Positions 142 to 10,170 of a stretch of 28,827 nucleotides of DNA are shown here, in pieces (the stretch's first letter is position 1; each line of letters opens with the position of its first letter). The DNA comes from a virus: IMG/VR virus record IMGVR_UViG_3300044856_000229, positions 64,001 to 92,827 of that record; one strand, written 5' to 3'. The translations under genes and the position numbers were made by a program. Under the pieces are notes generated by a model. That model was not told where the DNA came from. It searched no databases and saw only the letters and a program-made list of their open reading frames with translations.

Positions 142-157
142 TAGTTTTTTAAAATTT

Positions 158-640
158 TTACAAATTTTTGGTTTCGCTCACAAAGTATTTTACATGATAG
201 CCATTAAGTAATTCTTTTACTGCGATACTCTGCTTTTGTGTAGCACAATAGCAGTTAATTAAAATATACTTGTCAATGTCGATGTAATTACAAGGAATAT
301 CACAGTCTTTTAATCCATTGATTAATTTTTCCCAGTTCTCAGACTTATTAATTGTAGACTCTATTTTCCACAGGCGGTCTTTTCTTGCTTTTTCTTCTCC
401 CCATTTAACAATCCATACTCCCACAAGGTTAGCAAGAAAAGTTACAATAACTTTTTGCCACAATGGAAAATCTGCAACTGTATAAATAAGAACTACATTA
501 TAGTAACCATAGTAGCCCGCAGAAATAAGGCTCGCGATTGTTTTTCCAGATTTAATTGTTACAATAGATTTGATAGTTGAAAAGATAACATTTACGATTG
601 TTAATAATGAAAATAAAATTAATACATTCATGGGTTTCAC
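158..640 (-). CDS. hypothetical membrane protein (hydrophobic N-terminal half)
   Basis: 160-aa ORF. Own promoter at 662-690 and RBS GAGAAAGTGAG. N-terminal about 90 aa strongly hydrophobic. Confidence 0.7.
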   Translation of the reverse strand: MKPMNVLILFSLLTIVNVIFSTIKSIVTIKSGKTIASLISAGYYGYYNVVLIYTVADFPLWQKVIVTFLANLVGVWIVKWGEEKARKDRLWKIESTINKSENWEKLINGLKDCDIPCNYIDIDKYILINCYCATQKQSIAVKELLNGYHVKYFVSETKNL

Positions 641-661
641 TCACTTTCTCTTTTTTCTTTT

Positions 662-690
662 ATTATACACCTACTTATGGATTTTGTCAA
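662..690 (-). promoter_or_regulatory. sigmaA-type promoter, leftward (TTGACA-17-TATAAT)
   Basis: Minus strand reads TTGACA (690..685), a 17-nt spacer, then TATAAT (667..662). A perfect 22-bp palindrome GGACTATTTTATAAAATAGTCC lies immediately upstream at 691-712. Confidence 0.7.
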
Positions 691-712
691 GGACTATTTT
701 ATAAAATAGTCC
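691..712. repeat. perfect 22-bp palindrome GGACTATTTTATAAAATAGTCC overlapping stop codon of upstream gene
   Basis: The two halves are exact reverse complements. It sits between the stop of gene 699..989 and the -35 at 685-690. Possible terminator hairpin or operator. Confidence 0.6.
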
Positions 713-989
713 TAGTTGTGATTTTTAGCAGTTCACCTGTATTTTTATCATAATAAATAACTGCTTCTGTACCAATAGGACAAACATAATCGTCTATAGA
801 ATAAACCTTATCCCTCTGTTTGTTTTCAAATTCCATTGTGACAGAATCACTTTCTTCATGGTATATCTTTTTTGTGGCGGTCACTTCTGTATATCTTACA
901 TTGCTAGTATAATTTCCTGTAGCAACAATTACTATTATAATGATAATTGCCAAACCTATTCCGGCTAATACGTCACGCCATACTTTCAT
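699..989 (-). CDS. small membrane-anchored protein (N-terminal TM helix)
   Basis: ORF 699..1016. The ATG at 989 has strong RBS GTGAGGTGAtaaaaATG. The upstream ATG at 1016 has none. Run of hydrophobic residues after MKVWRDVLAG. Confidence 0.6.
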   Translation of the reverse strand: MKVWRDVLAGIGLAIIIIIVIVATGNYTSNVRYTEVTATKKIYHEESDSVTMEFENKQRDKVYSIDDYVCPIGTEAVIYYDKNTGELLKITTRTIL

Positions 990-1075
990 TTTTATCACCT
1001 CACATAAACATTTCAATTATTGCAACTATCCAGACTGCAAAGTTACTGAAAAGCAAAGTCCAAAAAATACACATT

Positions 1076-1204
1076 TTACATTTCCTCACTTTCCTTGAAG
1101 ATTTCTTCAATCAACTTTTTAGTTTCTTCTACACCAATGTATAAAGCTGATTTTTCGATTGCATCAAATAAAAGTGTTTTTACTTCCATTTCTTTTTCTG
1201 TCAT
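1076..1204 (-). CDS. small acidic protein, 42 aa (MTEKEMEVKTLLFDAIEKSALYIGVEETKKLIEEIFKESEEM)
   Basis: Unannotated short ORF directly downstream of promoter 1236-1264. RBS AGAGGAGAtaaaaaacATG. Followed by gene 699..989, so the two form an operon. Confidence 0.4.
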   Translation of the reverse strand: MTEKEMEVKTLLFDAIEKSALYIGVEETKKLIEEIFKESEEM

Positions 1205-1235
1205 GTTTTTTATCTCCTCTCTTGACTATGTACTT

Positions 1236-1264
1236 ATTATATCATGGGGGCTGAGGTTTGTCAA
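1236..1264 (-). promoter_or_regulatory. sigmaA-type promoter, leftward (TTGACA-17-TATAAT), -35 inside G5/C5 hairpin
   Basis: Minus strand reads TTGACA (1264..1259), spacer, then TATAAT (1241..1236). Plus-strand GGGGGctgaggtttgtcaaCCCCC is followed by a T-run. Confidence 0.65.
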
Positions 1265-1280
1265 CCCCCATTTTTAATTT

Positions 1281-1589
1281 TTAATGATTAAACCGCAGAT
1301 AATGAGTAAACCATTTTTTACCAAAATTTTCTTCTAACTGTTTTTCCTCTTCTGGATTCGTTTCCATGATTGAGATTTTCATAATTGTATCCCAGTCAAG
1401 AGTTGTAAACCAAGTCCCATCTTTCATACCTTTACTAAAACGGAACGTATCAAGAATAAAATCCATTGTTTCCTGTCGTTTAATTGTTTTCATACATTCT
1501 TCAAGAGAAATAATCTGGCTACCAAAAATTGGTTTAGTTTCACAACCTGTTACCTTCCATCCGCTAATCTTACTTTCAATTTTAATCAT
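1281..1589 (-). CDS. hypothetical protein
   Basis: 102-aa ORF. RBS AAAGAGAGGAAAAAAgATG (a cassette 5'UTR variant). Promoter at 1620-1648. Confidence 0.7.
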   Translation of the reverse strand: MIKIESKISGWKVTGCETKPIFGSQIISLEECMKTIKRQETMDFILDTFRFSKGMKDGTWFTTLDWDTIMKISIMETNPEEEKQLEENFGKKWFTHYLRFNH

Positions 1590-1619
1590 CTTTTTTCCTC
1601 TCTTTCATTTGATATATTT

Positions 1620-1648
1620 ATTATACTACAGGGGATTGAACTTGTCAA
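1620..1648 (-). promoter_or_regulatory. sigmaA-type promoter, leftward (TTGACA-17-TATAAT), -35 embedded in hairpin GGGGATTGAActtgTCAACCCC
   Basis: Minus strand reads TTGACA (1648..1643), spacer, then TATAAT (1625..1620). The hairpin at 1631-1652 is followed by a plus-strand T-run. Family B terminator-promoter element. Confidence 0.7.
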
Positions 1649-1656
1649 CCCCTATT

Positions 1657-1890
1657 TTATAAAATTCCTTCAATCTCGCAACATTTACGGAAAATTTTAA
1701 CACAATCATTCCAAGAGCCATCATCATTTGCATATTCTGCCAGAATATCATCATCCCATCCATCCTCAAGACCATAAGCAAACCATAAGTCCATTACTAC
1801 ATCTTCTCTGATATTTTCTTTAAGAAATGTATCCATCTTTTTGAGTAAATTCTTTCTAGTTTTAATCATCTCATTTCTTGATACTTCCAT
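1657..1890 (-). CDS. hypothetical acidic protein
   Basis: 77-aa ORF. RBS AAGGAAGGGGAAcaaataaATG. Tandem promoters at 1922-1950 and 2087-2115. Confidence 0.65.
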   Translation of the reverse strand: MEVSRNEMIKTRKNLLKKMDTFLKENIREDVVMDLWFAYGLEDGWDDDILAEYANDDGSWNDCVKIFRKCCEIEGIL

Positions 1891-1921
1891 TTATTTGTTC
1901 CCCTTCCTTATCTTTAAATAT

Positions 1922-1950
1922 AGTATACTATAGTCGAGCGGTTTTGTCAA
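1922..1950 (-). promoter_or_regulatory. sigmaA-type promoter, leftward (TTGACA-17-TATACT)
   Basis: Minus strand reads TTGACA (1950..1945), spacer, then TATACT (1927..1922). Flanks are paralogous to the promoter at 8445-8473 (TTGTCAATaTACAAAATAaCCAA). Confidence 0.65.
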
Positions 1951-2007
1951 TATACAAAATAACCAAAAGTAAAGTGTGATTTTGGGATTTTTTGTATAAG
2001 ATACCTA

Positions 2008-2037
2008 TTGACAAATAGTTATTTTATGTGTTATAAT
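2008..2037 (+). promoter_or_regulatory. rightward extended -10 promoter (TTGACA-18-TGtTATAAT) opposing the leftward genes
   Basis: Plus strand has TTGACA at 2008-2013, an 18-nt spacer, TG at -15/-14 and TATAAT at 2032-2037. The -35 sits inside CTATTgacAAATAG. Upstream TTTGTAtAA-N9 mirrors the GTGCA-N9 element of the other three rightward promoters. Confidence 0.55.
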
Positions 2038-2043
2038 TGAAGT

Positions 2044-2133
2044 TTGAGCCTCATGTGCGGGTGAAGCATTCGCCTGCGGCGCACTAATTTTATCACCTTT
2101 TGGAAGGTTTGTCAAGTAGTAAAATTGCACAAA
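2044..2133 (+). ncRNA. candidate short non-coding RNA (about 90-120 nt) from rightward promoter to bidirectional terminator
   Basis: No ORF (ATG TGC GGG TGA). GC-rich imperfect hairpin GUGCGGGUGAAGCAUUCGCCUGCGGCGCAC. Ends at terminator 2134-2165. Partly antisense to the leftward promoter 2087-2115 region. Confidence 0.3.
2087..2115 (-). promoter_or_regulatory. sigmaA-type promoter, leftward (TTGACA-17-TAAAAT), tandem with 1922-1950
   Basis: Minus strand reads TTGACA (2115..2110), spacer, then TAAAAT (2092..2087). No ORF between it and the next promoter. Confidence 0.5.
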
Positions 2134-2165
2134 AAACGCTGAATTAAAATCCAGCGTTTTGTATA
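2134..2165. terminator. bidirectional rho-independent terminator (AACGCTG-9nt-CAGCGTT flanked by A-run and T-run)
   Basis: 7-bp GC-containing stem with U-runs on both strands. Ends gene 2166..2540 (minus) and the rightward sRNA. TTGCACAAAA motif immediately upstream at 2124-2133. Confidence 0.7.
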
Positions 2166-2540
2166 TTATTTTCTCGGCATACTCAGTACAATTTTATATT
2201 TAGTACCATTCAGTTCAAAAAAGAACTCTCTCTCATTGTTAGTCACATCTAAATTTTCCGCCCCCATCTTTTCGACTGATTCTGTCAAAGCTGTGATGAT
2301 AGCTTGCTTTCCTTTGTTCTCTGGTTTTTTCCTTTTGGAAGTATCAAACTTGTAAACAGTTGTTTTTTTCTTGCGGTCTGCCTGTCGTGCCTTTTTAGAT
2401 GCTTTTTCCTGTTCTGGTGTTAATGTGAAAAGCTTTTCCCCCTTGTCTATTCTTTTATCATCTTCTAACATTTGCATTGCTTCTTCTCTGCTAATATCTA
2501 ACAATTTCATGTTACGTTCTATAATTTCATTGTCTGTCAT
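2166..2540 (-). CDS. hypothetical Lys-rich protein
   Basis: 124-aa ORF. RBS AAGAAAGGGtttaataATG. Co-transcribed with 2587..2958, since only a hairpin and no promoter lies between them. Confidence 0.7.
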   Translation of the reverse strand: MTDNEIIERNMKLLDISREEAMQMLEDDKRIDKGEKLFTLTPEQEKASKKARQADRKKKTTVYKFDTSKRKKPENKGKQAIITALTESVEKMGAENLDVTNNEREFFFELNGTKYKIVLSMPRK

Positions 2541-2565
2541 TATTAAACCCTTTCTTTAAATAGTA

Positions 2566-2580
2566 GGGGCTTTTCGCCCC
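2566..2580. terminator. intercistronic hairpin GGGGCttttcGCCCC (attenuator/partial terminator)
   Basis: 5-bp G/C stem with a T-rich plus-strand tail, sitting between the two genes of the operon. Confidence 0.4.
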
Positions 2581-2586
2581 CTTTAA

Positions 2587-2958
2587 TTATTTTGCAAAAA
2601 AGTATGCTTTGCGTTTTTCAACGATTCTATCAACTTTACCTTCACCGCAAAGGGCGGTTACAAGAGAAGTTACACGCTGATTTGAAAGTTCTTTCAAACC
2701 TTCAACTTCTTTCATCAATTCAGAAACGGTAAATCCACTGCCTGTATTTACAAGGTATTCAACAATCTTTTCTTTTAAGCTCTCATTTTCGAGCTGAGTT
2801 GCTGTAGGCTTACGATTTGCAGAAGATTTTTTGTTTACCTGTACAAGCATTTTGTCAAGTTTCTCGATAACTTCTGTATACTTTTCTGCATCAGTTTCTT
2901 TCATAACCTCGATTGCGGTTTCCAGTGCCATAGCGTTTGTCATTTTTTTGTCTGTCAT
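2587..2958 (-). CDS. hypothetical protein, possible winged-helix DNA-binding C-terminus
   Basis: The ORF-track start at 2967 is TTG. The ATG at 2958 has RBS AGGAattgataattATG. C-terminal segment FTVSELMKEV...SNQRVTSLVTALCGEGKVDRIVEKRKAYF resembles a wHTH. Confidence 0.6.
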   Translation of the reverse strand: MTDKKMTNAMALETAIEVMKETDAEKYTEVIEKLDKMLVQVNKKSSANRKPTATQLENESLKEKIVEYLVNTGSGFTVSELMKEVEGLKELSNQRVTSLVTALCGEGKVDRIVEKRKAYFFAK

Positions 2959-3011
2959 AATTATCAATTCCTTTCTTAATAAGAGATTTATTATTTGTTT
3001 TCTATGTTTTT

Positions 3012-3040
3012 ATTATAACACCTGTTGTCTTGTTTGTCAA
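3012..3040 (-). promoter_or_regulatory. sigmaA-type promoter, leftward (TTGACA-17-TATAAT)
   Basis: Minus strand reads TTGACA (3040..3035), spacer, then TATAAT (3017..3012). Context TAACACCTgTTGTCTTGTTTGTCAAGACCTTT is paralogous to the promoter at 9546-9574. Confidence 0.7.
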
Positions 3041-3107
3041 GACCTTTTTTATTTTTCTTTTGGGGGACTTCTCATTGTTTTTCACTTCCTTTCTTTATCT
3101 TGTAATA

Positions 3108-3136
3108 ATAATACCATATTTTTTACATTTTGTCAA
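3108..3136 (-). promoter_or_regulatory. sigmaA-type promoter, leftward (TTGACA-17-TATTAT) with UP-like A/T tract, tandem with 3012-3040
   Basis: Minus strand reads TTGACA (3136..3131), spacer, then TATTAT (3113..3108). Upstream TTTGTCAATGGTTTTTTTAAATTTTTTTCT is a family A element. Confidence 0.55.
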
Positions 3137-3158
3137 TGGTTTTTTTAAATTTTTTTCT

Positions 3159-3881
3159 TTATTTTTCCCACAGTCCAGTTCTCATCTTTTTGTGCTGTCT
3201 ATAACAATAATGACAGATTTCTTTTTCGATTAAAGTATCTTCAAGTCCAGTGTGTTTTTCTACAAAAGTATTATCTTTTGTGATGAATCTATAAAGGATT
3301 TCGGCTGTTACTCTCAGTTGTCCTCTAGTTGTGAGATAATTATTCTCTTCACAAAATCTTCTGTATGATGACATTTTGCATACTACATCACGTGCCATTT
3401 TCATAGTATCGCAGATTTCCAAACCATAAGGAAAGAAATATCTATATTTTGATTTAGTCAACCAACGCTGAGTAGTGTTTAATGTGCCATAGTCAAAACG
3501 CATGTTATGAGCAAAAACCTTTTTTACGTTGTAACGTTCACAACACTCTACAAGCTGTTTTCTGATATTGTAGAAAGATGTTAAAATTCTTTTACCGCTT
3601 TTGATATCTTCCCAGTACATCGGAATTTTCTCTGCATAATATGAGGATTTCATAAGCTCTTTTTCTTCAAGAAAAATGTCAGCGTTTACAAATGACCATG
3701 TTTCAAAAACCTCACCAGTACGTTTGTTGATAACAGCAAAACCGCAATCATAAACCCACATATTAGTTGGAAGCACCTGTTCTAATGATTTGTCTACTGG
3801 ACAAGTTTCTGTATCAATTACAATTGAGTAATCCATTCTTCTGTCAATTTTGTTTGTGTTTTTTCTGTTGATAAATTCCAT
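3159..3881 (-). CDS. DnaQ-like DEDDh 3'-5' exonuclease
   Basis: Exo I IVIDTETC, Exo II FAHNMRFDYGTL and Exo III HTGLEDTLIEKE motifs in the canonical order and spacing. RBS GAGAGAGAGGtaaacaaaaATG. Confidence 0.75.
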   Translation of the reverse strand: MEFINRKNTNKIDRRMDYSIVIDTETCPVDKSLEQVLPTNMWVYDCGFAVINKRTGEVFETWSFVNADIFLEEKELMKSSYYAEKIPMYWEDIKSGKRILTSFYNIRKQLVECCERYNVKKVFAHNMRFDYGTLNTTQRWLTKSKYRYFFPYGLEICDTMKMARDVVCKMSSYRRFCEENNYLTTRGQLRVTAEILYRFITKDNTFVEKHTGLEDTLIEKEICHYCYRQHKKMRTGLWEK

Positions 3882-3914
3882 TTTTGTTTACCTCTCTCTC
3901 ATTTCTATGTCTTT

Positions 3915-3943
3915 ATTATACCATCAGTGAAGAGGTTTGTCAA
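3915..3943 (-). promoter_or_regulatory. sigmaA-type promoter, leftward (TTGACA-17-TATAAT)
   Basis: Minus strand reads TTGACA (3943..3938), spacer, then TATAAT (3920..3915). Confidence 0.7.
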
Positions 3944-4009
3944 GAACTTTTTTAACTTTTTTATAAGTTTTTTATTTGCTTTCTTGTCTTTCTCTTCCTT
4001 ACAAGTATT

Positions 4010-4038
4010 ATAATACCACAAGTCATTGAGGATTGCAA
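4010..4038 (-). promoter_or_regulatory. candidate leftward extended -10 promoter (TTGCAA-17-TGgTATTAT), tandem upstream of 3915-3943
   Basis: Minus strand reads TTGCAAtcctcaatgacttgTGGTATTAT. Resembles the extended -10 promoter at 9920-9948. Confidence 0.35.
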
Positions 4039-4106
4039 GGATTATTTTGAAAAAAATTGCACAAAATGGGATAAATATTTGCGGAAAAATTTGTGCATTT
4101 TTCCTC

Positions 4107-4136
4107 TTGACAAAGTGTGGCGACCTGTGGTATAAT
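4107..4136 (+). promoter_or_regulatory. rightward extended -10 promoter (TTGACA-18-TGgTATAAT) with upstream GTGCA-N9 element
   Basis: TTGACA at 4107-4112, GGCGACCTGTGG spacer, TATAAT at 4131-4136. Core TTTTCCTCTTGACAAA...GGCGACCTGTGGTATAATT is nearly identical to the copy at 8532-8561. Confidence 0.6.
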
Positions 4137-4142
4137 TTTTCG

Positions 4143-4204
4143 GGCAGCAGTCGAGCCTAACTGTCTGTACGGTCATTAAAAAAAGAAAGCGTTTAAACGC
4201 TTTC
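4143..4204 (+). ncRNA. candidate short non-coding RNA (about 60 nt) ending in bidirectional terminator
   Basis: No ORF. Starts GGGCAGCAG, like the 8568 copy which starts GGGACAGCAGG. Contains AGCCUAACUGUCUG, identical to a 14-nt stretch at 8703-8716 inside leftward small gene 8603..8749. The terminator hairpin is shared with the 3' end of leftward small gene 4193..4315. Confidence 0.3.
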
Positions 4205-4210
4205 TTTTAC
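4177..4210. terminator. bidirectional terminator: perfect 20-bp palindrome GAAAGCGTTTAAACGCTTTC flanked by A7 and T4
   Basis: Exact palindrome at 4185-4204 with U-runs on both strands. Overlaps the stop codon of 4193..4315. Confidence 0.7.
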
Positions 4211-4315
4211 ATCTACCATTTTAATTCTGTGCGGTCTGTCTTTTGCCTCTGCATAGCTTGTGGTTTCCTTTACAATTTTTTTACCTTCCATAATCTGATA
4301 AACAACTTTTCTCAT
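4193..4315 (-). CDS. small protein, 40 aa (MRKVVYQIMEGKKIVKETTSYAEAKDRPHRIKMVDVKESV)
   Basis: Unannotated ORF. RBS AAGAGAGGtattaagaATG. Its stop lies inside the bidirectional terminator. Upstream is a degenerate hairpin element GGGTTAAGCCC and a TATAAT at 4344-4349. Confidence 0.4.
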   Translation of the reverse strand: MRKVVYQIMEGKKIVKETTSYAEAKDRPHRIKMVDVKESV

Positions 4316-4377
4316 TCTTAATACCTCTCTTTTCTATGATTTAATTATACTATAGGGTTAAGCCCTATCTTTATTTT

Positions 4378-4635
4378 TTAATCTTTTTCAATAACTCTAA
4401 AGTCCATGTTTAATGCAGATAAGACTTCTTCTGGATTAAGACTGTGCCCTTCACGAATAATGTTTAAATTTGTTCTGTCAATCAATCGAATCCAATCTTC
4501 TGACTTTTCAACAATAATACAAGGTTCATTAGATAAACAAGGACAAAAACCTTTACAATTAGCTTTTCCCTCACCGTGACGTCCTGCATAACAACCCTCG
4601 AGTTCCGCACATCTATAACATTTGTTTTCTACCAT
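4378..4635 (-). CDS. Cys-rich small protein (7 Cys in first 40 aa; probable metal-binding)
   Basis: 85-aa ORF. Cassette RBS AAAGAGAGGAAAgaaaaATG. Pattern CxxC..C...C..C.C..C. Confidence 0.7.
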   Translation of the reverse strand: MVENKCYRCAELEGCYAGRHGEGKANCKGFCPCLSNEPCIIVEKSEDWIRLIDRTNLNIIREGHSLNPEEVLSALNMDFRVIEKD

Positions 4636-4666
4636 TTTTCTTTCCTCTCTTTCATTTGATACATTA

Positions 4667-4695
4667 AGTATACATTACTTTTGGTTATTTGTCAA
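4667..4695 (-). promoter_or_regulatory. sigmaA-type promoter, leftward (TTGACA-17-TATACT) with conserved 5'UTR cassette
   Basis: Minus strand reads TTGACA (4695..4690), spacer, then TATACT (4672..4667). The 29-bp block CCTCTCTTTCATTTGATACATTAAGTATA at 4644-4672 is identical at 6101-6130 and 8241-8270. Confidence 0.7.
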
Positions 4696-4710
4696 TAAGT
4701 AAAAATGTAT

Positions 4711-4742
4711 AAAAAATGAGCTAAAAATCAGCTTATTTTTTA
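4711..4742. terminator. bidirectional terminator (TGAGCT-7nt-AGCTTA between A6 and T6)
   Basis: Short stem with U-runs on both strands. Follows the stop of gene 4746..5093. Confidence 0.5.
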
Positions 4743-4745
4743 CGT

Positions 4746-5093
4746 CTATTCTTTAATAAAAACTGTTATGTTACTAATCCTCTGAGCGGTACTTGCTACG
4801 TCCTCTTTTATTGAATAACCATTTTCTTCTAATAATTTTGTAAATATTGTAAAATTAAGGAAAACATTTTCGTCTTGAACTCTGTCGTATAAATAAAAAT
4901 AATCTTCTTTGCCCCATCTTTCAAAGAATTTTATTCTAAAGCTTGTTACTAAAGGACGACCCTCTTCTGCGTATCCATAAAGTTTAGAAATTATTCTTTC
5001 ATTTATAAATTTTTCTGTATTAGAAGTAGCTTGTATAAAAGCTTCTATACAAATTTTCCGTTTCATTTCTAAAATTTCTTTTGCTTTCATCAC
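4746..5093 (-). CDS. hypothetical protein
   Basis: 115-aa ORF. RBS AAAGAGAGAGtaaataattgtgATG. No promoter between it and upstream gene 5139..5618, only the 15-bp palindrome. Confidence 0.65.
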   Translation of the reverse strand: MMKAKEILEMKRKICIEAFIQATSNTEKFINERIISKLYGYAEEGRPLVTSFRIKFFERWGKEDYFYLYDRVQDENVFLNFTIFTKLLEENGYSIKEDVASTAQRISNITVFIKE

Positions 5094-5125
5094 AATTATT
5101 TACTCTCTCTTTCTTTATTAATATT

Positions 5126-5158
5126 TCTGGGGGAACTCTCAGAAAAATTTTCTGAGAG
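5126..5158. repeat. perfect 15-bp-arm palindrome GGAACTCTCAGAAAA-a-TTTTCTGAGAGTTCC spanning stop codon of NT5C paralog 1
   Basis: The arms are exact reverse complements. The left arm encodes the last residues (GTLRKF) and the TGA stop lies in the right arm. Possible terminator, RNase III site or operator. Confidence 0.6.
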
Positions 5159-5618
5159 TTCCAATAATGTCGTTTACATCAAAGCTGTTCTCGCCCCACT
5201 CTTCTCTATTACGTTTTTCATCATCAAAGAGCCAACCGTTACAATCAACAACTGTGCTTTTTGGTGTGCCATAGTTTACAATTTTAACCTCATCCCATTC
5301 AACACTAGGAAGATGTTTTTCGAGCCATGCAAGTTTTACGCTTGTTACTGCCGTGTTATAAGCTGTCGAACCATATTTGCTGAGCCAACTTACAATACCG
5401 ATTCTATAACCGTTTGCCTGTAATTTATGTAATACTCTTGCAAATACTGAGAAGTTAAACAGCGGTCTTGCTACTGCATAAGGTGTGGTATCCTCATTTT
5501 CCAGATAGTCCAACCAGTTTTCTACACCATAGAAGTTAGCAAGTGTGCCGTCCATGTCAAAGTAAATAGTTCCTTTTGTTTCCATCATTCCTTTAATTGT
5601 ATTCATCATAATCATCAA
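5139..5618 (-). CDS. HAD-superfamily 5'(3')-deoxyribonucleotidase (NT5C-like), paralog 1
   Basis: HAD motif I FDMDGTLANF. WLEKHLP...VKIVNYGTPKSTVV...GWLFDDE matches the NT5C signature W.EK.FG...IVLT.DK...D.LIDD. About 150 aa. The true start may be the internal ATG at 5588 (METKGTIYFDMDGT), by analogy with paralog 2. Confidence 0.7.
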   Translation of the reverse strand: MMIMMNTIKGMMETKGTIYFDMDGTLANFYGVENWLDYLENEDTTPYAVARPLFNFSVFARVLHKLQANGYRIGIVSWLSKYGSTAYNTAVTSVKLAWLEKHLPSVEWDEVKIVNYGTPKSTVVDCNGWLFDDEKRNREEWGENSFDVNDIIGTLRKFF

Positions 5619-5647
5619 ATCCTTTCTTTTTCCTTTTCTTTAATTAT

Positions 5648-5676
5648 ATTATATACTATCTTTTATAATTTGTCAA
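5648..5676 (-). promoter_or_regulatory. sigmaA-type promoter, leftward (TTGACA-17-TATAAT) with UP-like tract
   Basis: Minus strand reads TTGACA (5676..5671), spacer, then TATAAT (5653..5648). Upstream TTTGTCAACAGTTTTTTTAAATTTTTTTCT is a family A element. Confidence 0.7.
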
Positions 5677-5697
5677 CAGTTTTTTTAAATTTTTTTC

Positions 5698-6093
5698 TCA
5701 GATTTTTGTAATTCCTCTATCTCTTAAATACTCACAAAAGCTTTCAGCGTCCAGTATTTCCGCAAGTCCTTTCATTGAAAGGTTCATTTTGTTATACGAA
5801 CAACGCACTTCAATCGGCTTGAAATTTCTTTCTGTGATAGCTGTTGATAAATAATCTTCAACGTTGCTTAATCGAACAACTGTTTTTCTGAAAATGTTTT
5901 TTGAAAGTTCAGCATTCATAAATAAATCATCTTTTACAAGTTCCACGAGTTCATCAAAAGTTTTAATTGTAAATGTTTGTGTCTTTGCTTCTTCTGGTGT
6001 AAGATATTTTACATGTTTCCAGATACTTGTATCAACAAAATTTTTCCATCCTTCCATTCTGTATTCAAATCTATAATCATAAATCTCTTTCAT
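5698..6093 (-). CDS. hypothetical protein
   Basis: The ATG at 6093 has cassette RBS AAAGAGAGGAAAtaaaaATG. The ORF-track N-terminal extension to 6156 reads through the promoter (MLTSSTL is the reverse complement of the TTGACA hairpin) and is rejected. Confidence 0.7.
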   Translation of the reverse strand: MKEIYDYRFEYRMEGWKNFVDTSIWKHVKYLTPEEAKTQTFTIKTFDELVELVKDDLFMNAELSKNIFRKTVVRLSNVEDYLSTAITERNFKPIEVRCSYNKMNLSMKGLAEILDAESFCEYLRDRGITKI

Positions 6094-6124
6094 TTTTATT
6101 TCCTCTCTTTCATTTGATACATTA

Positions 6125-6153
6125 AGTATAACACATAAGGTTGAACTTGTCAA
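6125..6153 (-). promoter_or_regulatory. sigmaA-type promoter, leftward (TTGACA-17-TATACT), -35 in hairpin GGTTGAActtgTCAAC; -35 overlaps stop codon of 6150..6386
   Basis: Minus strand reads TTGACA (6153..6148), spacer, then TATACT (6130..6125). The upstream gene ends ...KMC* with its TGA stop inside TTGACA. Confidence 0.7.
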
Positions 6154-6386
6154 CACATTTTTAAATTTCTTTTTTTCGCTTCTTCAGTTGTTAATCCATA
6201 ACTTTTCCATGGGTCATATTTTCCGAATAAAATTGTTTCATCAACTGTATCACACATTTTATTATTTACATTATAGTCATAATAAAACCACTTTTTACAA
6301 TCCCATTTAAGCGGACAGTGATAACAAGTTGTTGTAGTTGCTACAGTATCCATGTTTATTGCTAATAATGCTTTTATCTTAATCAT
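6150..6386 (-). CDS. small Cys-containing protein
   Basis: 78-aa ORF. RBS AGGAAGAGGGGtaaacaaaaATG. Only a degenerate promoter upstream (TATAAT at 6415-6420, with the -35 degraded to CCACAA). Confidence 0.6.
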   Translation of the reverse strand: MIKIKALLAINMDTVATTTTCYHCPLKWDCKKWFYYDYNVNNKMCDTVDETILFGKYDPWKSYGLTTEEAKKRNLKMC

Positions 6387-6461
6387 TTTTGTTTACCCCT
6401 CTTCCTTTATCTTGATTATAGTATATCATAGTTGTGGAAAAATGTCTATAGGCAAATTGCA

Positions 6462-6496
6462 CAAAAAAAAGAGCTGAAATTTCAGCTCTTTTTTCT
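6462..6496. terminator. bidirectional terminator: perfect 20-bp palindrome AGAGCTGAAATTTCAGCTCT flanked by A8/T6
   Basis: Palindrome at 6470-6489. A TTGCACAAAA motif is directly adjacent at 6457-6466. Ends gene 6496..6681. Confidence 0.7.
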
Positions 6497-6681
6497 TACT
6501 GCTCCTTTGTTACACTTTTCACAAGCGACCGCAATTCCGCAACTCCAAAAGAGTCCATATACGCGGTCATTGCCTTTTTCAAATCTGCCGTTCTCTTGGC
6601 TCTCAACTGCCCTACCATCCAGTTGTATTCTTCTTCATTTAATTCGTAAGGACAACAACCACTTTCTTTTAATTCATACAT
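6496..6681 (-). CDS. small hypothetical protein (61 aa)
   Basis: RBS AAAGAGAGGAAcaaaaaATG. Tandem promoters at 6716-6744 and 6780-6808. Confidence 0.6.
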   Translation of the reverse strand: MYELKESGCCPYELNEEEYNWMVGQLRAKRTADLKKAMTAYMDSFGVAELRSLVKSVTKEQ

Positions 6682-6715
6682 TTTTTGTTCCTCTCTTTCT
6701 TTATCTTATGTACTT

Positions 6716-6744
6716 ATTATATCAGAGATTCGGGCTTTTGTCAA
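6716..6744 (-). promoter_or_regulatory. sigmaA-type promoter, leftward (TTGACA-17-TATAAT)
   Basis: Minus strand reads TTGACA (6744..6739), spacer, then TATAAT (6721..6716). Confidence 0.65.
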
Positions 6745-6779
6745 CCCTCTTCCTCACTTTTATCTCTTTTGTTAATTAT

Positions 6780-6808
6780 AATATATCACATGGGGTTGAA
6801 TTTGTCAA
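6780..6808 (-). promoter_or_regulatory. sigmaA-type promoter, leftward (TTGACA-17-TATATT) in hairpin GGGGTTGAAtttgTCAACCCC, tandem with 6716-6744
   Basis: Perfect 8-bp-stem hairpin at 6792-6811, followed by a plus-strand T-run. Confidence 0.55.
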
Positions 6809-6824
6809 CCCCAATTTTTATTTT

Positions 6825-7172
6825 TTATCTTTCTTTTAATCCATGTATTATAATTGTATGACCGCAATTATCACAAGTATAATAATATTCATCATCACTA
6901 TTTCTATGATGTACTGCATTTACGAACTTATAAGGCTCATTACATTCTGTGCAATATCCGTTGTTCCATGCTTCATCATCATCTTTGTTTTGTAATGTAA
7001 CCAACCCACCAACACCGCAACCAATAGCAACCGCAAGTATAATTCCTACTATCCATTTGACTATTGGTTTGCTGTCCTCTGCTATAATATTTACAATAAA
7101 TATTGCCATGTAACTGCCGACTGTCAAACTCATAAGTATTGATGTTAAAATAAATTCTGCCGTGTAATTCAT
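6825..7172 (-). CDS. membrane protein (2 TM) with C-terminal zinc-ribbon (CTEC...CDNC)
   Basis: The ATG at 7172 has RBS AAAGAGAGGtaaataaaATG. The ORF-track extension to 7232 is the translation of the promoter hairpin and is rejected. Confidence 0.7.
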   Translation of the reverse strand: MNYTAEFILTSILMSLTVGSYMAIFIVNIIAEDSKPIVKWIVGIILAVAIGCGVGGLVTLQNKDDDEAWNNGYCTECNEPYKFVNAVHHRNSDDEYYYTCDNCGHTIIIHGLKER

Positions 7173-7203
7173 TTTATTTACCTCTCTTTCTTTAACTGTC
7201 TTT

Positions 7204-7232
7204 ATTATAACATAAGAGGTTGAACTTGTCAA
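7204..7232 (-). promoter_or_regulatory. sigmaA-type promoter, leftward (TTGACA-17-TATAAT) in hairpin GAGGTTGAActtgTCAACTCC
   Basis: Minus strand reads TTGACA (7232..7227), spacer, then TATAAT (7209..7204). Confidence 0.7.
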
Positions 7233-7236
7233 CTCC

Positions 7237-7533
7237 TTATCTAAAAAATTCTTTTGCTGTCTCTCTGTATTTTTTTGGAAGGCTTGCGATAAATTTTTCT
7301 TTATCTTCTTCTGACAGTGTTCTTCTTAACTGTCTTGTTGTTACTGAGAATGGATTTAGATGATATTTAAGTATTAATGGAAACGCTCTAATGAATACGA
7401 GTGTTTTAAACGCTTCTATAATTTTGCCAAGGATTTCAACAGGTATCCAAAACCATTTCCATTCATTATAAAAACTTAAATAGCTAAGTGCATACATTAC
7501 AATAACAATTACTACTACTAATGATACTCTCAT
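7237..7533 (-). CDS. small membrane protein
   Basis: 98-aa ORF. RBS AAAGAGAGGtaaatgaaATG. Hydrophobic N-terminus. Confidence 0.7.
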   Translation of the reverse strand: MRVSLVVVIVIVMYALSYLSFYNEWKWFWIPVEILGKIIEAFKTLVFIRAFPLILKYHLNPFSVTTRQLRRTLSEEDKEKFIASLPKKYRETAKEFFR

Positions 7534-7565
7534 TTCATTTACCTCTCTTTCTTTTCTATGTTTTC

Positions 7566-7594
7566 ATTATAACATAAAGGGTTGAACTTGTCAA
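7566..7594 (-). promoter_or_regulatory. sigmaA-type promoter, leftward (TTGACA-17-TATAAT) in perfect hairpin GGGTTGAActtgTCAACCC
   Basis: Minus strand reads TTGACA (7594..7589), spacer, then TATAAT (7571..7566). On the minus strand the hairpin is followed by UUUAUGUUAU and on the plus strand by TTTATTTT, so it can act as a terminator in both directions. Confidence 0.7.
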
Positions 7595-7603
7595 CCCTTT
7601 ATT

Positions 7604-7750
7604 TTAAATTAATTGTAAAAGATAACTTCCATCATTGATAGCAAGAATTCTCACAATTTCATCTTTATTCTGAGAAAGAATCTCACCTGTTGAACAGTCA
7701 ATTAATGCGGTTTCATAACCTTTTTCAATGTAAAGCCCTAAAATCATCAT
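7604..7750 (-). CDS. small protein, 48 aa (MMILGLYIEKGYETALIDCSTGEILSQNKDEIVRILAINDGSYLLQLI)
   Basis: Unannotated ORF. RBS AAGAAAGAGGTGttttttATG. Confidence 0.4.
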   Translation of the reverse strand: MMILGLYIEKGYETALIDCSTGEILSQNKDEIVRILAINDGSYLLQLI

Positions 7751-7766
7751 AAAAAACACCTCTTTC

Positions 7767-7913
7767 TTAAACAAGCTTTAACAAGTTACCGTCTTTATCA
7801 AAACAAAAACCCACAGTTTCATCTGATACAACCTCAAAATAGTCTGAGTCATTTACTGGAATCCATAATCCAGCATTTCTAAAAATTTCTAATAATTTTT
7901 CTTTATCATTCAT
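7767..7913 (-). CDS. small protein, 48 aa (MNDKEKLLEIFRNAGLWIPVNDSDYFEVVSDETVGFCFDKDGNLLKLV)
   Basis: Unannotated ORF. RBS AGAAAGAGAGGtaaagaaaATG. Downstream of promoter 7940-7968. Confidence 0.45.
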   Translation of the reverse strand: MNDKEKLLEIFRNAGLWIPVNDSDYFEVVSDETVGFCFDKDGNLLKLV

Positions 7914-7939
7914 TTTCTTTACCTCTCTTTCTAATACCT

Positions 7940-7968
7940 ATTATACCAGTCCTTGACTTATTTGTCAA
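7940..7968 (-). promoter_or_regulatory. sigmaA-type promoter, leftward (TTGACA-17-TATAAT) in inverted repeat CCTTGACttatttGTCAAGG
   Basis: Minus strand reads TTGACA (7968..7963), spacer, then TATAAT (7945..7940). Confidence 0.7.
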
Positions 7969-8239
7969 GGACTATTTTTTTAATTTCATCATCATAGATG
8001 TTATTGTCAGTGTGCATTGTATCCATGATAAGTTTTACATTATCACCAATTTCAAGGTCTGTGCCGTCCTCAAAATAATACTCCCAGTCATTTCCAGTAG
8101 CATCTGTGAAGGTTGCAAGATTGTTATTCACTTCTACAACCTCTGCGGTTCTGGTGTATGTACTCTCATAAGCTCCCACACCACCAATTGCTGTGATACC
8201 CACCATAATTGCTAATACTGTTTTAATCATCTTCATCAT
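7958..8239 (-). CDS. small secreted/membrane-anchored protein (N-terminal signal-like segment)
   Basis: 93-aa ORF. The cassette RBS abuts the first ATG, so the real start may be the ATG at 8230 (MIKTVLAIMVG). Hydrophobic N-terminus followed by an acidic domain. Confidence 0.65.
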   Translation of the reverse strand: MMKMIKTVLAIMVGITAIGGVGAYESTYTRTAEVVEVNNNLATFTDATGNDWEYYFEDGTDLEIGDNVKLIMDTMHTDNNIYDDEIKKIVLDK

Positions 8240-8473: not shown

Positions 8474-8531
8474 TGTACAAAATAGCCAATTTCGGGAAGC
8501 AAATTATTTAATATTTTGTGCAATTTTCCTC

Positions 8532-8561
8532 TTGACAAACTGCGGCGACCTGTGGTATAAT
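8532..8561 (+). promoter_or_regulatory. rightward extended -10 promoter (TTGACA-18-TGgTATAAT) with upstream GTGCA-N9 element
   Basis: TTGACA at 8532-8537 and TATAAT at 8556-8561. Near-identical core to the copy at 4107-4136. GTGCA ends 9 nt before the -35. Confidence 0.6.
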
Positions 8562-8567
8562 TAGTTG

Positions 8568-8608
8568 GGACAGCAGGCGACCATAGCGGTTGCCCATTTC
8601 TTTTAATA
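8568..8608 (+). ncRNA. candidate short non-coding RNA (about 40 nt) antisense to 3' end of leftward gene 8603..8749
   Basis: Starts GGGACAGCAGG. Hairpin GGCGACCatagcGGTTGCC followed by CATTTCTTTT. Overlaps the stop codon region of the convergent small gene. Confidence 0.3.
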
Positions 8609-9820: not shown

Positions 9821-9919
9821 GAGGTTTTTATAAATTTTCTTTGTTAATTTTTTAACAAGCGAACTACTGGGAATCGCAGTTTTCGTCACCAACTTACGCT
9901 CCATGAGAGCACCAAATCT

Positions 9920-9948
9920 ATTATACCACAGATGTGCGGTGATGTCAA
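9920..9948 (-). promoter_or_regulatory. leftward extended -10 promoter (TTGACA-17-TGgTATAAT), tandem upstream of 9792-9820
   Basis: Minus strand reads cATTGACAtcaccgcacatctgTGGTATAATag. Resembles the rightward promoters through CTGTGGTATAAT. Confidence 0.55.
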
Positions 9949-9957
9949 TGGGTAACA

Positions 9958-10056
9958 TTGCACAAAGATTGACTACTGATTTTGTGCAATGTGCTGAAAA
10001 TTATTTTTGTGCAAAGTGACGAAATTTGGGAAAAAAATTAAAATATTTTTGTGCAA
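9958..10056. promoter_or_regulatory. array of TTTTGTGCAA motifs (direct copies at 9980-9989, 10005-10014, 10047-10056; inverted copy at 9958-9967) upstream of rightward promoter
   Basis: Exact 10-mer repeats. The last copy is positioned GTGCA-N9-TTGACA, as at the three other rightward promoters. Candidate activator/repressor site or UP-element array. Confidence 0.45.
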
Positions 10057-10064
10057 CTTTTTGC

Positions 10065-10094
10065 TTGACAAATTGTTGTGTCTCGTGTTATAAT
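10065..10094 (+). promoter_or_regulatory. rightward extended -10 promoter (TTGACA-18-TGtTATAAT)
   Basis: TTGACA at 10065-10070 and TATAAT at 10089-10094, with TG at -15/-14. Confidence 0.55.
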
Positions 10095-10100: not shown

Positions 10101-10170
10101 TCGGGCCTGCGCTTGCGTCTACGGCCCGAGGATTTGACGAGAGCGTCATTACTTTTTATGTATTTTTCCC
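10101..10170 (+). ncRNA. candidate short non-coding RNA (GC-rich hairpin GGGCC-15nt-GGCCC, then GACGagaGCGTC + U-tract)
   Basis: No ORF. Structured 5' end followed by a U-rich tail. Lies in the 360-bp non-coding gap 9959-10320. Confidence 0.25.

Follow-up and report, generated by a model that had tools for sequence, protein, structure and literature searches.

Why should a phage set perfect promoters, with no gene behind them, against the direction of its own early genes? The question is raised by a window of 28,827 nt of viral DNA (IMG/VR record IMGVR_UViG_3300044856_000229, positions 64,001 to 92,827; the window is this whole stretch, and coordinates are counted from its first letter), in which an earlier note had described four plus-strand promoters at 2008-2037, 4107-4136, 8532-8561 and 10065-10094. 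Gene regulation in the large phages of gut and rumen Clostridia is almost unstudied, and the unit analysed here provides a sequence-defined handle on immediate-early transcription.

Consensus promoters pointing against the early genes

The four plus-strand promoters are real, far beyond chance: the pattern TTGACA-N12-17-TGNTATAAT, counted on both strands, has 13 matches in the window where 0.01 are expected. Their coordinates proved exact. All four carry 12 of 12 hexamer positions plus TGn, in the TRTG form that is typical of Gram-positive promoters, and all sit within an array of minus-strand genes; their hexamers are 18 bp apart, whereas the spacer is 17 bp in all nine minus-strand matches. 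The near-identity noticed between copies 2 and 3 amounts to 36 of 40 positions (4098-4137 versus 8523-8562). As the earlier note stated, none of the promoters precedes a gene, the ORF scan finding no plus-strand ORF with a ribosome-binding site after any of the four, and hidden small ORFs at these sites were rejected on the same ground. Downstream lie 40-60 nt of GC-rich DNA, in a genome of 31% GC.

Some 30 gene promoters of equal strength occur within 13 kb. Gene 3159-3881, for example, has its own consensus promoter at 3943-3915, as the genes next to these sites usually do, and the late genes begin at 13472 with a late operon promoter at 13420-13448. Two further promoters were absent from the earlier note, namely one at 2115-2087(-) that faces copy 1, and a sixth box-type promoter at 9948-9920(-), which is followed by about 75-100 nt without an ORF or ribosome-binding site and then by the next gene promoter (9820-9792).

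A conserved non-coding cassette

The four sites are copies of one conserved, apparently non-coding cassette of about 150 bp. It has two inverted TTTGTGCA boxes about 31 bp apart and a ACAAATTTCGGGAT element; the distal box is joined to TTTCGGGAT, at a constant distance of 38-39 nt from the -35. The sigma-A promoter matches the consensus in full (TTGACAAA and the TRTG-extended -10 TRTG-TATAAT, with a spacer of 17 or 18 bp) and is accompanied by an A/T-rich start region (gGAAATTTCG) and a GC-rich hairpin of 8-14 bp whose sequence is variable. The whole unit follows one early gene tail-to-tail and has its back to the promoter region of the following early gene. An upstream GTGCA-N9-TTGACA had been claimed for every copy, and it is present in copies 2-4, but copy 1 has GTATA instead. 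A spacer motif, GCTGGCGG, seemed conserved in a subset and was discarded, as it holds almost no information across 239 cassettes.

A covariance model search had been suggested before. Our model, R1, was built from relatives alone with the window sequences excluded, and its top four window matches are the four sites (51.8, 37.8, 36.7 and 35.2 bits; next best 26.2). In the R1 alignment copy 4 is canonical, and copies 1-3 are variants with partly non-standard hairpin pairs, G.U pairs being used on the plus strand in these three. The features of the four copies are as follows.

Copy 1
1983..2037, plus: control region and promoter (R1 match 1986-2091, 35.2 bits)
1983-1987 and 1990-1999, plus: TGGGA and the box variant TTTTTGTATAA
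2008-2013 and 2032-2037, plus: -35 and, after an 18-bp spacer, -10, the latter as TGT-TATAAT
2042..2167, plus: predicted RNA of ~125 nt (fold -32 kcal/mol)
2057-2077, plus: hairpin core with two G.U pairs
2087..2132, minus: facing partner promoter, with TTTGTGCA box at 2126-2132 and TTGACA-17-TGATAAAAT at 2115-2087
Copy 2
4058..4136, plus: control region and promoter (R1 match 4085-4179, 37.8 bits)
4058-4064, 4067-4071 and 4090-4097, plus: reverse box, TGGGA and box TTTGTGCA
4107-4112 and 4131-4136, plus: -35 and -10
4142..4208, plus: predicted RNA of ~65 nt (-21.5 kcal/mol, z -3.97, 0/200 shuffles)
4144-4168, plus: 5' hairpin GGGCAG/CUGUCU with two G.U pairs, an A-run after it
Copy 3
8492..8561, plus: control region and promoter (R1 match 8510-8600, 36.7 bits; orthologs in L002, L004 and L005)
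8492-8497, 8515-8522, 8532-8537 and 8556-8561, plus: TCGGGA, box, -35 and -10
8567..8604, plus: predicted RNA of ~37 nt, hairpin 8576-8594 and then CAUUUCUUUU
Copy 4
9959..10094, plus: control region and promoter (R1 match 10043-10136, 51.8 bits, E 4e-12)
9959-9965 (minus), 9982-9988, 10007-10013 and 10049-10055: boxes
10026-10031, 10065-10070 and 10089-10094, plus: TTGGGA, -35 and -10
10101..10159, plus: predicted RNA of ~59 nt in the canonical layout, start region GGAAAUUCG
10102-10130, plus: hairpin CGGGCC...GGCCCG
9840..9971, minus: related box-type consensus promoter 9948-9920, divergent from copy 4 (R1 25.5 bits; fold z -1.2)

Backward-facing promoters were compared with gene promoters in the window and 12 related phage loci, and they are a distinct promoter class. 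A GC hairpin within 50 nt (<=50 nt) accompanies 40/48 backward-facing promoters and 10/245 gene promoters (Fisher p = 8e-32), while a ribosome-binding site with a start codon follows 1/48 versus 206/245. The 18-bp spacer (27/48 versus 9/245), the TTGTRYA box (33/48 versus 22/245) and the TYGGGA element (30/48 versus 2/245) also mark the backward-facing group.

Contigs associated with gut and rumen Clostridia contain at least 239 non-redundant copies, at a density of 5-10 per 20 kb in the relatives. Two weaker copies are found in the cultured Enterococcus phage H1, a relative, cassette-like sites of phage H1 or EF1 being placed at L019 13135(-) and 9945(-). A YonF-type terminase links the phage group distantly to SPbeta; no nucleotide match was found in 50,697 phage records, relatives being detected at the protein level only. 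The cassette is undescribed, being absent from Rfam and from the searchable literature. Rfam has no match to the window at the gathering score and only chance-level matches (E > 1) to 1-13400 at a permissive threshold, it returned only tRNAs in five relatives, and tRNA/tmRNA scans found nothing at the four sites.

The TTTGTGCA box also occurs in the host world. The layout TTTGTGCA-N9/10-TTGACAAA lies, with the same spacing, upstream of host tRNA operons and housekeeping genes, which makes the box a host-type promoter element; a TTTGTGCA 9-10 bp upstream of the -35 is thus a promoter element of the presumed hosts and may aid promoter annotation there. Its presence at host tRNA operons also suggests that this phage group infects Oscillospiraceae or Ruminococcus-like bacteria. 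A DnaA box was rejected, since TTWTNCACA fits some relatives but is mismatched at two positions by the copies in the window, and conservation continues past the wrong side of the box; the box is not known to fit Rex, CRP, CodY or Spo0A sites. A phage-specific operator, by analogy with SPBRE/MrpR (PMC10516654), was set aside because host genes have the same box and spacing.

A hairpin at the predicted RNA start

In most cassettes the hairpin starts 8-9 nt past the -10 hexamer, which would be +1 to +3, at the predicted 5' end of the RNA, if transcription begins at the usual 7th nucleotide. The stems covary, with 35 cells changed on both sides versus 14.1 in shuffles (0/500). Hairpin sequences differ among copies and structure alone is kept, for which reason REP/BIME-type repeated palindromes were rejected; the copy 3 stem is kept, with changes, in L002, L004 and L005, and in the copy 4 orthologs of L006, L007 and L008 the stem is kept while its interior varies. 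No conserved loop motif was found. The candidate CGTGGGCG recurs in one sub-lineage and was dropped, as no strand-specific GC k-mer is enriched overall.

Asymmetry of folding between the strands is absent in 39 hairpins, and weak but significant in 197. Where a cassette has no facing partner, folding is slightly stronger on the transcribed strand (-15.85 versus -15.17 kcal/mol; 106 versus 74; p = 0.007). At copy 3 a G.U pair becomes an A.C mismatch on the minus strand and the T-run is present only on the plus strand; the minus-strand RNA of the copy 1 stretch is without folding (-9.4 kcal/mol, z -0.3). Predicted promoters would transcribe about a quarter of the cassettes from both sides. Copy 1 is such a case, with 49 bp between its -10 and that of the facing promoter 2115-2087(-) and a predicted transcript overlap of ~37 nt that spans the hairpin, and the same arrangement recurs in L006, L007, L008, L013 and phAss-1.

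Such hairpins could be encoded by small-RNA genes with tRNA-type host promoters, their abundant and very stable products acting in trans as a sponge or decoy for a host protein such as a ribonuclease, an RNA- or DNA-sensing defence protein or RNA polymerase itself; the counter-orientation would then merely isolate these genes from early transcription. The maximal promoter, the GC-rich structure in a 31% GC genome, an occasional terminator, the TTTGTGCA-N9/10-TTGACAAA layout shared with host tRNA operons, the slight strand-specific folding, the keeping of structure with sequence left free and the 5-10 copies per 20 kb would all suit this explanation. We nevertheless consider it somewhat unlikely. 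No conserved loop or single-stranded motif offers itself to a protein or a base-pairing target, most members lack a same-direction terminator and so would yield no defined small RNA, and the phage tRNA genes of the cassette regions run in the gene direction. Moreover, the backward bias is strong among hairpin promoters (40 versus 10, against 48 versus 245 for all perfect-consensus promoters) and the placement behind a stop codon is fixed, while a free-standing RNA gene needs neither placement nor orientation. A rather improbable idea is a new class of stable phage RNAs, very abundant 5'-triphosphate, GC-clamped mini-hairpins made from tRNA-type host promoters, with tens of sequence-different copies per phage, that would act in trans by shape on a host protein. 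Examples of such recognition would be a decoy for a nucleic-acid-sensing defence system or a ribonuclease inhibitor.

Exchange of cassettes between genomes

Judging by the pattern of homology, cassettes are exchanged as units between close genomes. Between genomes that are 85-96% identical, homology breaks exactly at the cassette edges: L006 and L008 have other sequence in place of window 4065-4178 (homology breaks at 4064/4067 and resumes at 4179/4200), and window 1989-2136, with copy 1, matches a cassette at a different place in L008. These breaks, the displaced match and the many copies per genome would be in keeping with mainly mobile or recombinogenic promoter modules that mediate the exchange of early-gene cassettes and have little direct role in infection. 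However, the perfect promoter consensus, the fixed hairpin position and the stem covariation indicate selection on function, not merely repeated homology, so that we hold a purely recombinational role to be very unlikely; being compatible with every other explanation, it is also no true alternative.

Seven phages retain the cassette upstream of an exonuclease-like gene even though they do not share its convergent gene, which is a 40-aa ORF in the window and a tRNA in L017. This ties it to the divergent exonuclease-like gene and not to the gene that it faces, and its retention while the faced gene changes counts against an action in cis on that gene.

The replacement at copy 2 also bears on an antisense target in trans. 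The earlier note had found a 14-mer of the transcript starting at 4143 inside a small gene, and had taken the RNA to be antisense to that mRNA. The 14-mer, AGCCUAACUGUCUG, is present on the same strand at 4154-4167 and at 8704-8717, one base from the position given for it in the gene (8603-8755), and a match of at least 14 bases arises in 2/300 dinucleotide shuffles of the transcript. Pairing in trans with this mRNA is nonetheless extremely unlikely. As four transcripts were compared, one such match has a ~3% probability of arising by chance, which makes it marginal, and it is not conserved: the L007 RNA copy reads AGCCTGACTGCCCG (3/14 changed) while the gene keeps the 14-mer, and with these changes the pairing GGGCAG/CTGTCT becomes a perfect stem, GGGCAG/CTGCCC. 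In L006 and L008 this place is occupied by a different cassette, and in the window the 14-mer lies partly within the predicted hairpin.

Terminators and predicted antisense overlap

Between the stop codon of the upstream gene and the predicted cassette start there are 30-150 nt. Opposing terminators most often have their promoter-proximal end at +35 to +49, and a polymerase released there would just about touch one that sits at the cassette. In the window, the convergent (upstream) ORFs of the four copies encode 124, 40, 50 and 102 aa, hydrophilic or acidic.

The transcripts had been described as GC-rich and 40-110 nt long, each with a perfect-palindrome bidirectional terminator at its end that also serves the convergent gene. 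They are GC-rich, but the predicted lengths are ~125, 65, 37 and 59 nt, and the terminator description holds for copy 2, roughly for copy 1, and not for copies 3 and 4. At copy 2 the terminator (4181-4208) is a perfect bidirectional palindrome that includes the stop codon of gene 4193-4315(-), and at copy 1 an imperfect bidirectional one (~2136-2164) lies directly behind the stop codon of gene 2166-2540(-). Copy 3, which is back-to-back with gene promoter 8473-8445(-), has its hairpin as a plus-strand-only terminator abutting the stop codon of gene 8603-8755(-). Copy 4 has a weak 5-bp hairpin (10135-10148) with a U-run, 160 nt from the nearest leftward gene.

Predicted overlap with the upstream mRNA is ~33-38 nt for copies 1 and 2, confined to the shared bidirectional-terminator region except for 15 nt of coding sequence in copy 2. 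For copy 3 it would be the full 37 nt if the leftward mRNA reads on, and for copy 4 no overlap with a leftward mRNA is evident. Since three of the four window RNAs end within 37-125 nt, any antisense action would here be limited to the 3' untranslated or terminator part. A same-direction terminator is found in only 13/38 cassettes, and in 25/237 under stricter rules; most relatives have none, and there the cassette should transcribe back into the upstream gene. Predicted overlap in the relatives exceeds 100 nt in 23-25 of 38, and reaches hundreds of nt in many that lack a same-direction terminator.

The RNA might be irrelevant, with the cassettes serving as parking places or sinks for host RNA polymerase, either as roadblocks or by titrating it from host genes, if a perfect promoter and a GC-rich initial transcribed region hold slow-escaping complexes. 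Poor escape, however, needs no palindrome, yet the stems covary, titration is already provided by the ~30 gene promoters of the same strength in 13 kb, and escape kinetics are beyond what sequence can reveal. For these reasons we find parking quite unlikely, even with every recognition element at consensus, with opposing terminators that end ~35-49 nt from the start site, and with an initial transcribed sequence that is GC-rich where gene promoters of the same phages begin A-rich.

The terminated RNAs of the window also recall lambda PR'/6S/Q, in which a strong constitutive promoter, reading in the same direction as the late genes, gives a short terminated RNA. The cassettes could likewise be launch pads for conditional rightward transcription, held until a phage factor gives resistance to the terminator. 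Transcription would then continue rightward towards the late genes (13472), silencing the early genes as it crosses them in antisense. All four promoters are strong and constitutive in type and point to the structural genes on the same strand, the relative orientation is the same in Enterococcus phage H1 and phAss-1, and the extra conserved DNA elements near the promoter could bind a factor. In contrast with lambda, there are many copies instead of one (four in the window), most relatives have no terminator to overcome, and the late operon has its own promoter at 13420-13448. No Q-like gene was recognised among 30 early ORFs of these 28.8 kb, in a genome of ~150 kb, and no promoter-proximal -10-like pause element of the lambda PR' type was identified at the cassettes. 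When these ORFs were compared with Pfam in search of RNA-binding, antiterminator or sigma-like proteins, the only matches were NT5C-like, Thg1-like, MazE/AbrB-like and DUF7352, and the hairpin loops are not conserved, unlike an RNA site bound by protein or polymerase. A launch-pad role is therefore a slim prospect.

Cassettes as candidate counter-transcription units

The cassettes probably oppose or fence off early-gene transcription. More specifically, we tentatively propose, with a probability of about 0.4, that each may act in cis as a counter-transcription unit opposing the upstream early gene, comparable to lambda OOP RNA. An antisense or transcription-interference role had been among the suggestions of the earlier note and is the best-fitting reading, as the cassette is conserved, almost always counter-oriented and placed 30-150 nt behind a stop codon. 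RNAP decoys, another of its suggestions, are less likely. Its further suggestion of priming or structural RNAs found no support, and a replication origin or primer RNA was rejected because there is no AT-rich unwinding element downstream and the copies are too many.

In the proposed mechanism, host RNA polymerase would fire from the cassette against the flow of early transcription. The hairpin, 1-3 nt from the predicted 5' end, would be a 5' stabiliser, so that the counter-transcript could outlive mRNAs. A cassette-bound or departing polymerase would meet polymerases leaking through the upstream terminator, as a roadblock or in collision. The cassette RNA would be complementary to the 3' end of the upstream mRNA, and the duplex might expose that mRNA to double-strand-specific cleavage, as OOP does cII mRNA. 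Together these steps would give immediate-early transcription units an inherent brake and a boundary.

Several observations bear on parts of this scheme. The position of copy 4, 160 nt from the nearest leftward gene, counts against action in cis, and the consensus promoter that the next gene usually has makes a benefit from insulation less obvious. Equal folding of both strands in the smaller hairpin set, together with the quarter of cassettes that are two-sided, counts against a pure antisense RNA. Counter-transcription also gives no role to the fixed ACAAATTTCGGGAT element.

If the cassettes are a brake or boundary, they would let a phage pulse or insulate its toxic host-takeover genes simply and without a protein, and would be a ready-made synthetic-biology part for Firmicutes. 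The cultured Enterococcus phage H1, with its two weaker copies, makes the idea testable.

Comparison with known systems

Convergent promoters tens of bp apart, at which polymerases exclude each other or collide, are known from coliphage 186 (pR/pL), P2 (Pe/Pc) and P22 (Pant/Psar, sar RNA). The same face-to-face geometry is seen in copy 1 with 2115-2087(-) and in about a quarter of the cassettes. Those systems, however, are single lysis-lysogeny or immunity switches, whereas the cassettes are repeated units in an early lytic gene array and have a palindromic hairpin exactly between the two start sites.

Bacillus prophages have type I toxin-antitoxin pairs with 3'-overlapping antisense RNAs (bsrG/SR4, yonT/SR6 of SPbeta, txpA/RatA). 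A convergent small gene and non-coding RNA with a common terminator region are the likeness, degradation by RNase III belonging to the toxin-antitoxin side. We rejected such a pair for the cassettes because the convergent ORFs are not small hydrophobic toxins, a tRNA takes their place in L017 and no sequence is conserved among the RNAs. PMC10516654 mentions that spbT is silenced through RNase III.

5'-terminal stem-loops stabilise bacterial RNAs, according to a review (PMC3997798, citing Emory 1992 and Hambraeus 2002). In the examples given there (ompA and papA of E. coli, aprE and ermC of B. subtilis), as is predicted for the cassettes, a stable stem of any sequence lies near the 5' end. The known stabilisers protect mRNAs, whereas the cassette RNAs are mostly non-coding counter-transcripts with a predicted 5' end.

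The PeSLs of T4-type phages consist of a stem-loop terminator and then an early promoter, in the gene direction (PMC2839356, PMC4122927). Both they and the cassettes are small, repeated, composite regulatory units between small early genes of plastic regions, and both form boundaries of modular exchange or replacement between close relatives. The gene-direction (minus-strand) promoters of the window, with a terminator hairpin around the -35, fit the PeSL layout closely (e.g., 7566-7602). The cassettes differ in firing backward, in having the hairpin after the start site and in their additional upstream elements.

Lambda OOP RNA overlaps 52 nt of the cII 3' end (PMC5869508), and the same paper cites Krinke and Wulff for OOP lowering cII expression through RNase III. 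OOP comes from one locus and has a defined target within coding sequence, whereas the window has four cassettes in 10 kb and the relatives have 5-10 per 20 kb. The cassettes, as read from sequence alone, share a promoter-hairpin layout with a variable RNA, and in the window their overlap is confined to the terminator region. What OOP (pO, tO) and, by prediction, the cassettes have in common is a short non-coding RNA from a constitutive host-type promoter, directed against early transcription and overlapping the 3' end of the convergent early gene.

Results

Promoters opposed to the early genes

The pattern TTGACA-N12-17-TGNTATAAT was found 13 times in the window against 0.01 expected, with an 18-bp spacer in all four plus-strand sites and a 17-bp spacer in all nine minus-strand matches. 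The plus-strand promoters lie at exactly the coordinates that the earlier note had reported:

2008-2037, plus strand: copy 1
4107-4136, plus strand: copy 2
8532-8561, plus strand: copy 3
10065-10094, plus strand: copy 4

As described there, copies 2 and 3 are near-identical (36/40 positions alike around the promoter), and none of the four leads into an ORF with a ribosome-binding site. GTGCA-N9-TTGACA, ascribed to every copy, is present in three, copy 1 having GTATA. The perfect-palindrome terminator proposed for each transcript exists in copy 2 only (4181-4208) and not in copies 1, 3 and 4; copy 1 has a bidirectional terminator, though an imperfect one, but the copy 3 hairpin terminates the plus strand only, and the terminator that copy 4 was said to share with a convergent gene is weak and distant from any leftward gene. 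The 14-mer thought to make one RNA antisense to an early mRNA does occur twice, at the corrected positions 4154-4167 and 8704-8717; the match is marginally unusual (2/300 shuffles reach the same), and its role as a target is very improbable. Beside copy 4, 10150-10320 is a stretch of ~170 nt with no convincing gene, and a 66-aa ORF at 10088-10288 (minus strand), which has no ribosome-binding site, overlaps the copy 4 RNA.

Genome setting

The phage segment has a GC content of 31%. All genes in 1-13.1 kb are on the minus strand, those of this left arm being mostly ORFans of 40-160 aa, and ~30 near-consensus minus-strand promoters each precede one or two small genes; plus-strand genes, including large terminase, portal and a probable capsid protein, begin at 13.47 kb. 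Judged by its sequence, the left arm resembles an immediate-early host-takeover region. A nucleotide search of the window against 50,697 phage records gave no match. Protein comparison places the phage closest, among cultured ones, to Enterococcus phages H1, EF1/EF5 and VRE9 and to Geobacillus virus E3; the metagenomic phAss-1 is a relative too, and SPbeta-type phages are more remote. Related IMG/VR contigs span 37-188 kb. Other features of the window are:

2587-2967, minus strand: 126-aa early protein with weak, sub-threshold matches to winged-helix domains (Penicillinase_R, Mnd1 HTH), a possible early regulator
5139-5618 and 9046-9513, minus strand: two paralogous NT5C-like 5'-deoxynucleotidase genes
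11627-12484, minus strand: Thg1-like tRNA-His guanylyltransferase gene (Pfam E 3e-31)
12832-13470: MazE/AbrB-like small protein, first gene of the leftward operon, with the control region beside it
13414-13386 (minus) and 13420-13448 (plus): back-to-back promoters forming a divergent control region at the early/late boundary, adjoining the MazE/AbrB-like gene

Despite the Thg1-like gene, no tRNA gene was found in the window; relatives carry them in their early regions (L017 9659-9731, L013 8799-8871, many in phAss-1).

A conserved cassette family

A pattern search found copy 3 orthologs in three large viral contigs. With homologs of the exonuclease-like neighbour gene as anchors, thirteen 20-kb loci were fetched, and these contained 5-10 gene-opposed perfect promoters per 20 kb, nearly all with one common layout:

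After the promoter: about eight A/T-rich nucleotides, gGAAATTTCG
Then: a GC-rich hairpin of 8-14 bp, different in sequence in each copy
Often: CCAAAAAA plus a second hairpin

Backward-facing and gene promoters were unlike in every feature compared.

Features of 48 backward-facing and 245 gene promoters in the window and 12 non-redundant loci
Feature; backward-facing; gene promoters
GC hairpin within 50 nt (p = 8e-32); 40/48; 10/245
Ribosome-binding site and start codon; 1/48; 206/245
18-bp spacer; 27/48; 9/245
TTGTRYA box; 33/48; 22/245
TYGGGA farther upstream; 30/48; 2/245

The family extends to phAss-1 and, in a weaker form, to Enterococcus phage H1. A scan for the box together with the promoter, in a single genome of each species, gave at least 120 loci, nearly all in gut or rumen Clostridia assemblies, with the hairpin present in 69/139 among the matches listed; over all loci 239-261 non-redundant cassettes were collected. 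A covariance model trained on 24 relatives, window sequences excluded, ranked the window sites 1-4 (51.8, 37.8, 36.7 and 35.2 bits; next match 26.2), and an Rfam search returned nothing comparable. By sequence, then, the promoter-hairpin cassette is a distinct, conserved, non-coding and counter-oriented element. That such strong promoters merely trap polymerase is improbable.

Upstream elements

In the promoter logo, TTTTGTGCAAATT precedes TTGACAAA by 9-10 bp and TGTGGTATAAT comes after; at the box position gene promoters carry A-tracts instead. Farther upstream stands ACAAATTTCGGGAT; of the 111 cassettes that have it, 90 place its GGGA at a constant distance of 38-39 nt from the -35. Since the box recurs in reverse within ACAAATTTCGGGAT, the cassette has a pair of inverted boxes separated by about three helical turns. 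In ~40% of cassettes the next element is a divergent gene promoter, at 47-48 or 58-60 bp. The box also occurs at equal spacing ahead of tRNA operons on bacterial contigs, and so is not phage-specific; there it also adjoins CTP synthase, tRNA methyltransferase and ECF transporter genes. These occurrences identify it as a host-type element.

On nine bacterial MAG contigs (L027, L053, L042, L060, L023, L047, L040, L046, L067), host promoters of tRNA operons and of short terminated leader-like transcripts carry the TTTGTGCA box at this spacing too, a sign that Oscillospiraceae and other Clostridia may have an upstream promoter element as yet unannotated. The densest cluster of the window, four TTTGTGCA boxes in ~100 bp (one reversed, three direct), spans 9959-10055 between divergent promoters 9948(-) and 10065(+). 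The former, 9948-9920(-), within 9840-9971 on the minus strand, has the box and perfect hexamers; the ~75-100 nt after it, kept in L006-L008, hold no ORF or ribosome-binding site until the next promoter and may represent a small RNA in the gene direction or a long leader.

In relatives, a longer conserved candidate non-coding RNA (~80-150 nt, GGGCC..GGCCCGAATTCCC..CCATATG..) starts from the same kind of promoter, at a position past the window's left end (L006 18229+, L007 18309+, L008 17603+, L001/L003 ~2999-3150, L061, L075), and also in a higher-GC phage having the exact promoter spacer of copies 2 and 3. In phAss-1 (OQ749652.1, 1400-26000), promoters of a second class, with the palindromic spacer TTGACAYAAAAAAATTTTTRTGRTATAAT, stand ahead of tRNA and middle-region genes, and are unlike both window classes.

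Hairpin, placement and exchange

The hairpin usually starts 8-9 nt past the -10, that is at +1 to +3 assuming a standard start site. Its stems covary, although those sequences were preselected for a stem; the evidence free of that bias is the 40/48 versus 10/245 contrast. No conserved loop motif was found among cassettes, and the hairpin is conserved in structure only. Folding is nearly strand-symmetric, with a small advantage of the transcribed strand in the large set (p = 0.007); G.U pairs occur in the plus-strand RNAs of copies 1-3, and no folding of the copy 1 minus-strand RNA is predicted. A stable hairpin RNA acting in trans is an unlikely reading of the cassettes. In about one cassette in four, a partner promoter faces the first from across the same hairpin; the window's example is 2115-2087(-), opposite copy 1.

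Predicted transcription starts fall 30-150 nt behind the upstream gene's stop codon. An opposing, gene-direction terminator is present in 96/237 cassettes, its promoter-proximal end peaking at +35 to +49. Same-direction terminators are rare (13/38 under lenient rules, 25/237 under strict ones), and therefore the short terminated RNAs of the window are a minority form; in most relatives transcription should run back over the upstream gene. That the cassette launches antiterminated polymerase is quite improbable.

The exonuclease-like gene has a cassette immediately upstream in seven phages, though the faced gene varies. Where genomes are 85-96% identical, their homology is interrupted at the edges of cassettes, and whole cassettes are swapped as units, which identifies modular exchange. 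A mainly recombinational role would be compatible with the other readings and is itself quite improbable.

Discussion

Our preferred reading, tentatively held at a probability of roughly 0.4, is that the cassette acts in cis against early transcription, the hairpin serving as 5' stabiliser of the predicted RNA, a general principle reviewed in PMC3997798. Opposition would come from polymerase collision or a roadblock at the upstream terminator; by a second route, the RNA would be complementary to the upstream mRNA 3' end, after the manner of lambda OOP RNA (PMC5869508). This cis reading has weaknesses: where the next gene has its own strong promoter, insulation serves no clear purpose; it is the divergent gene, not the convergent one, to which the cassette is tied; and the ACAAATTTCGGGAT element falls outside its account.

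Many minus-strand gene promoters of the window have a GC-containing hairpin around the -35 hexamer (e.g. AAAGGGTTGACAAGTTCAACCCTTT), which merges the terminator of the gene upstream with the promoter that follows into one composite element:

7566-7602, 6778-6813, 7940-7973, 1236-1270, 1620-1655, 662-713 and 3012-3043, minus strand: hairpin-wrapped promoters

T4-type promoter-early stem-loops (PeSLs; PMC2839356, PMC4122927) are much like these promoters, and resemble the cassette in manner of spread, whereas lambda OOP RNA and face-to-face promoter pairs are closest to it in its proposed way of working. The cassette fires backwards, is multi-copy and has its own conserved architecture, and so stands outside the definition of either group; it is therefore filed as a variant form of counter-transcription/antisense control in phage early regions.
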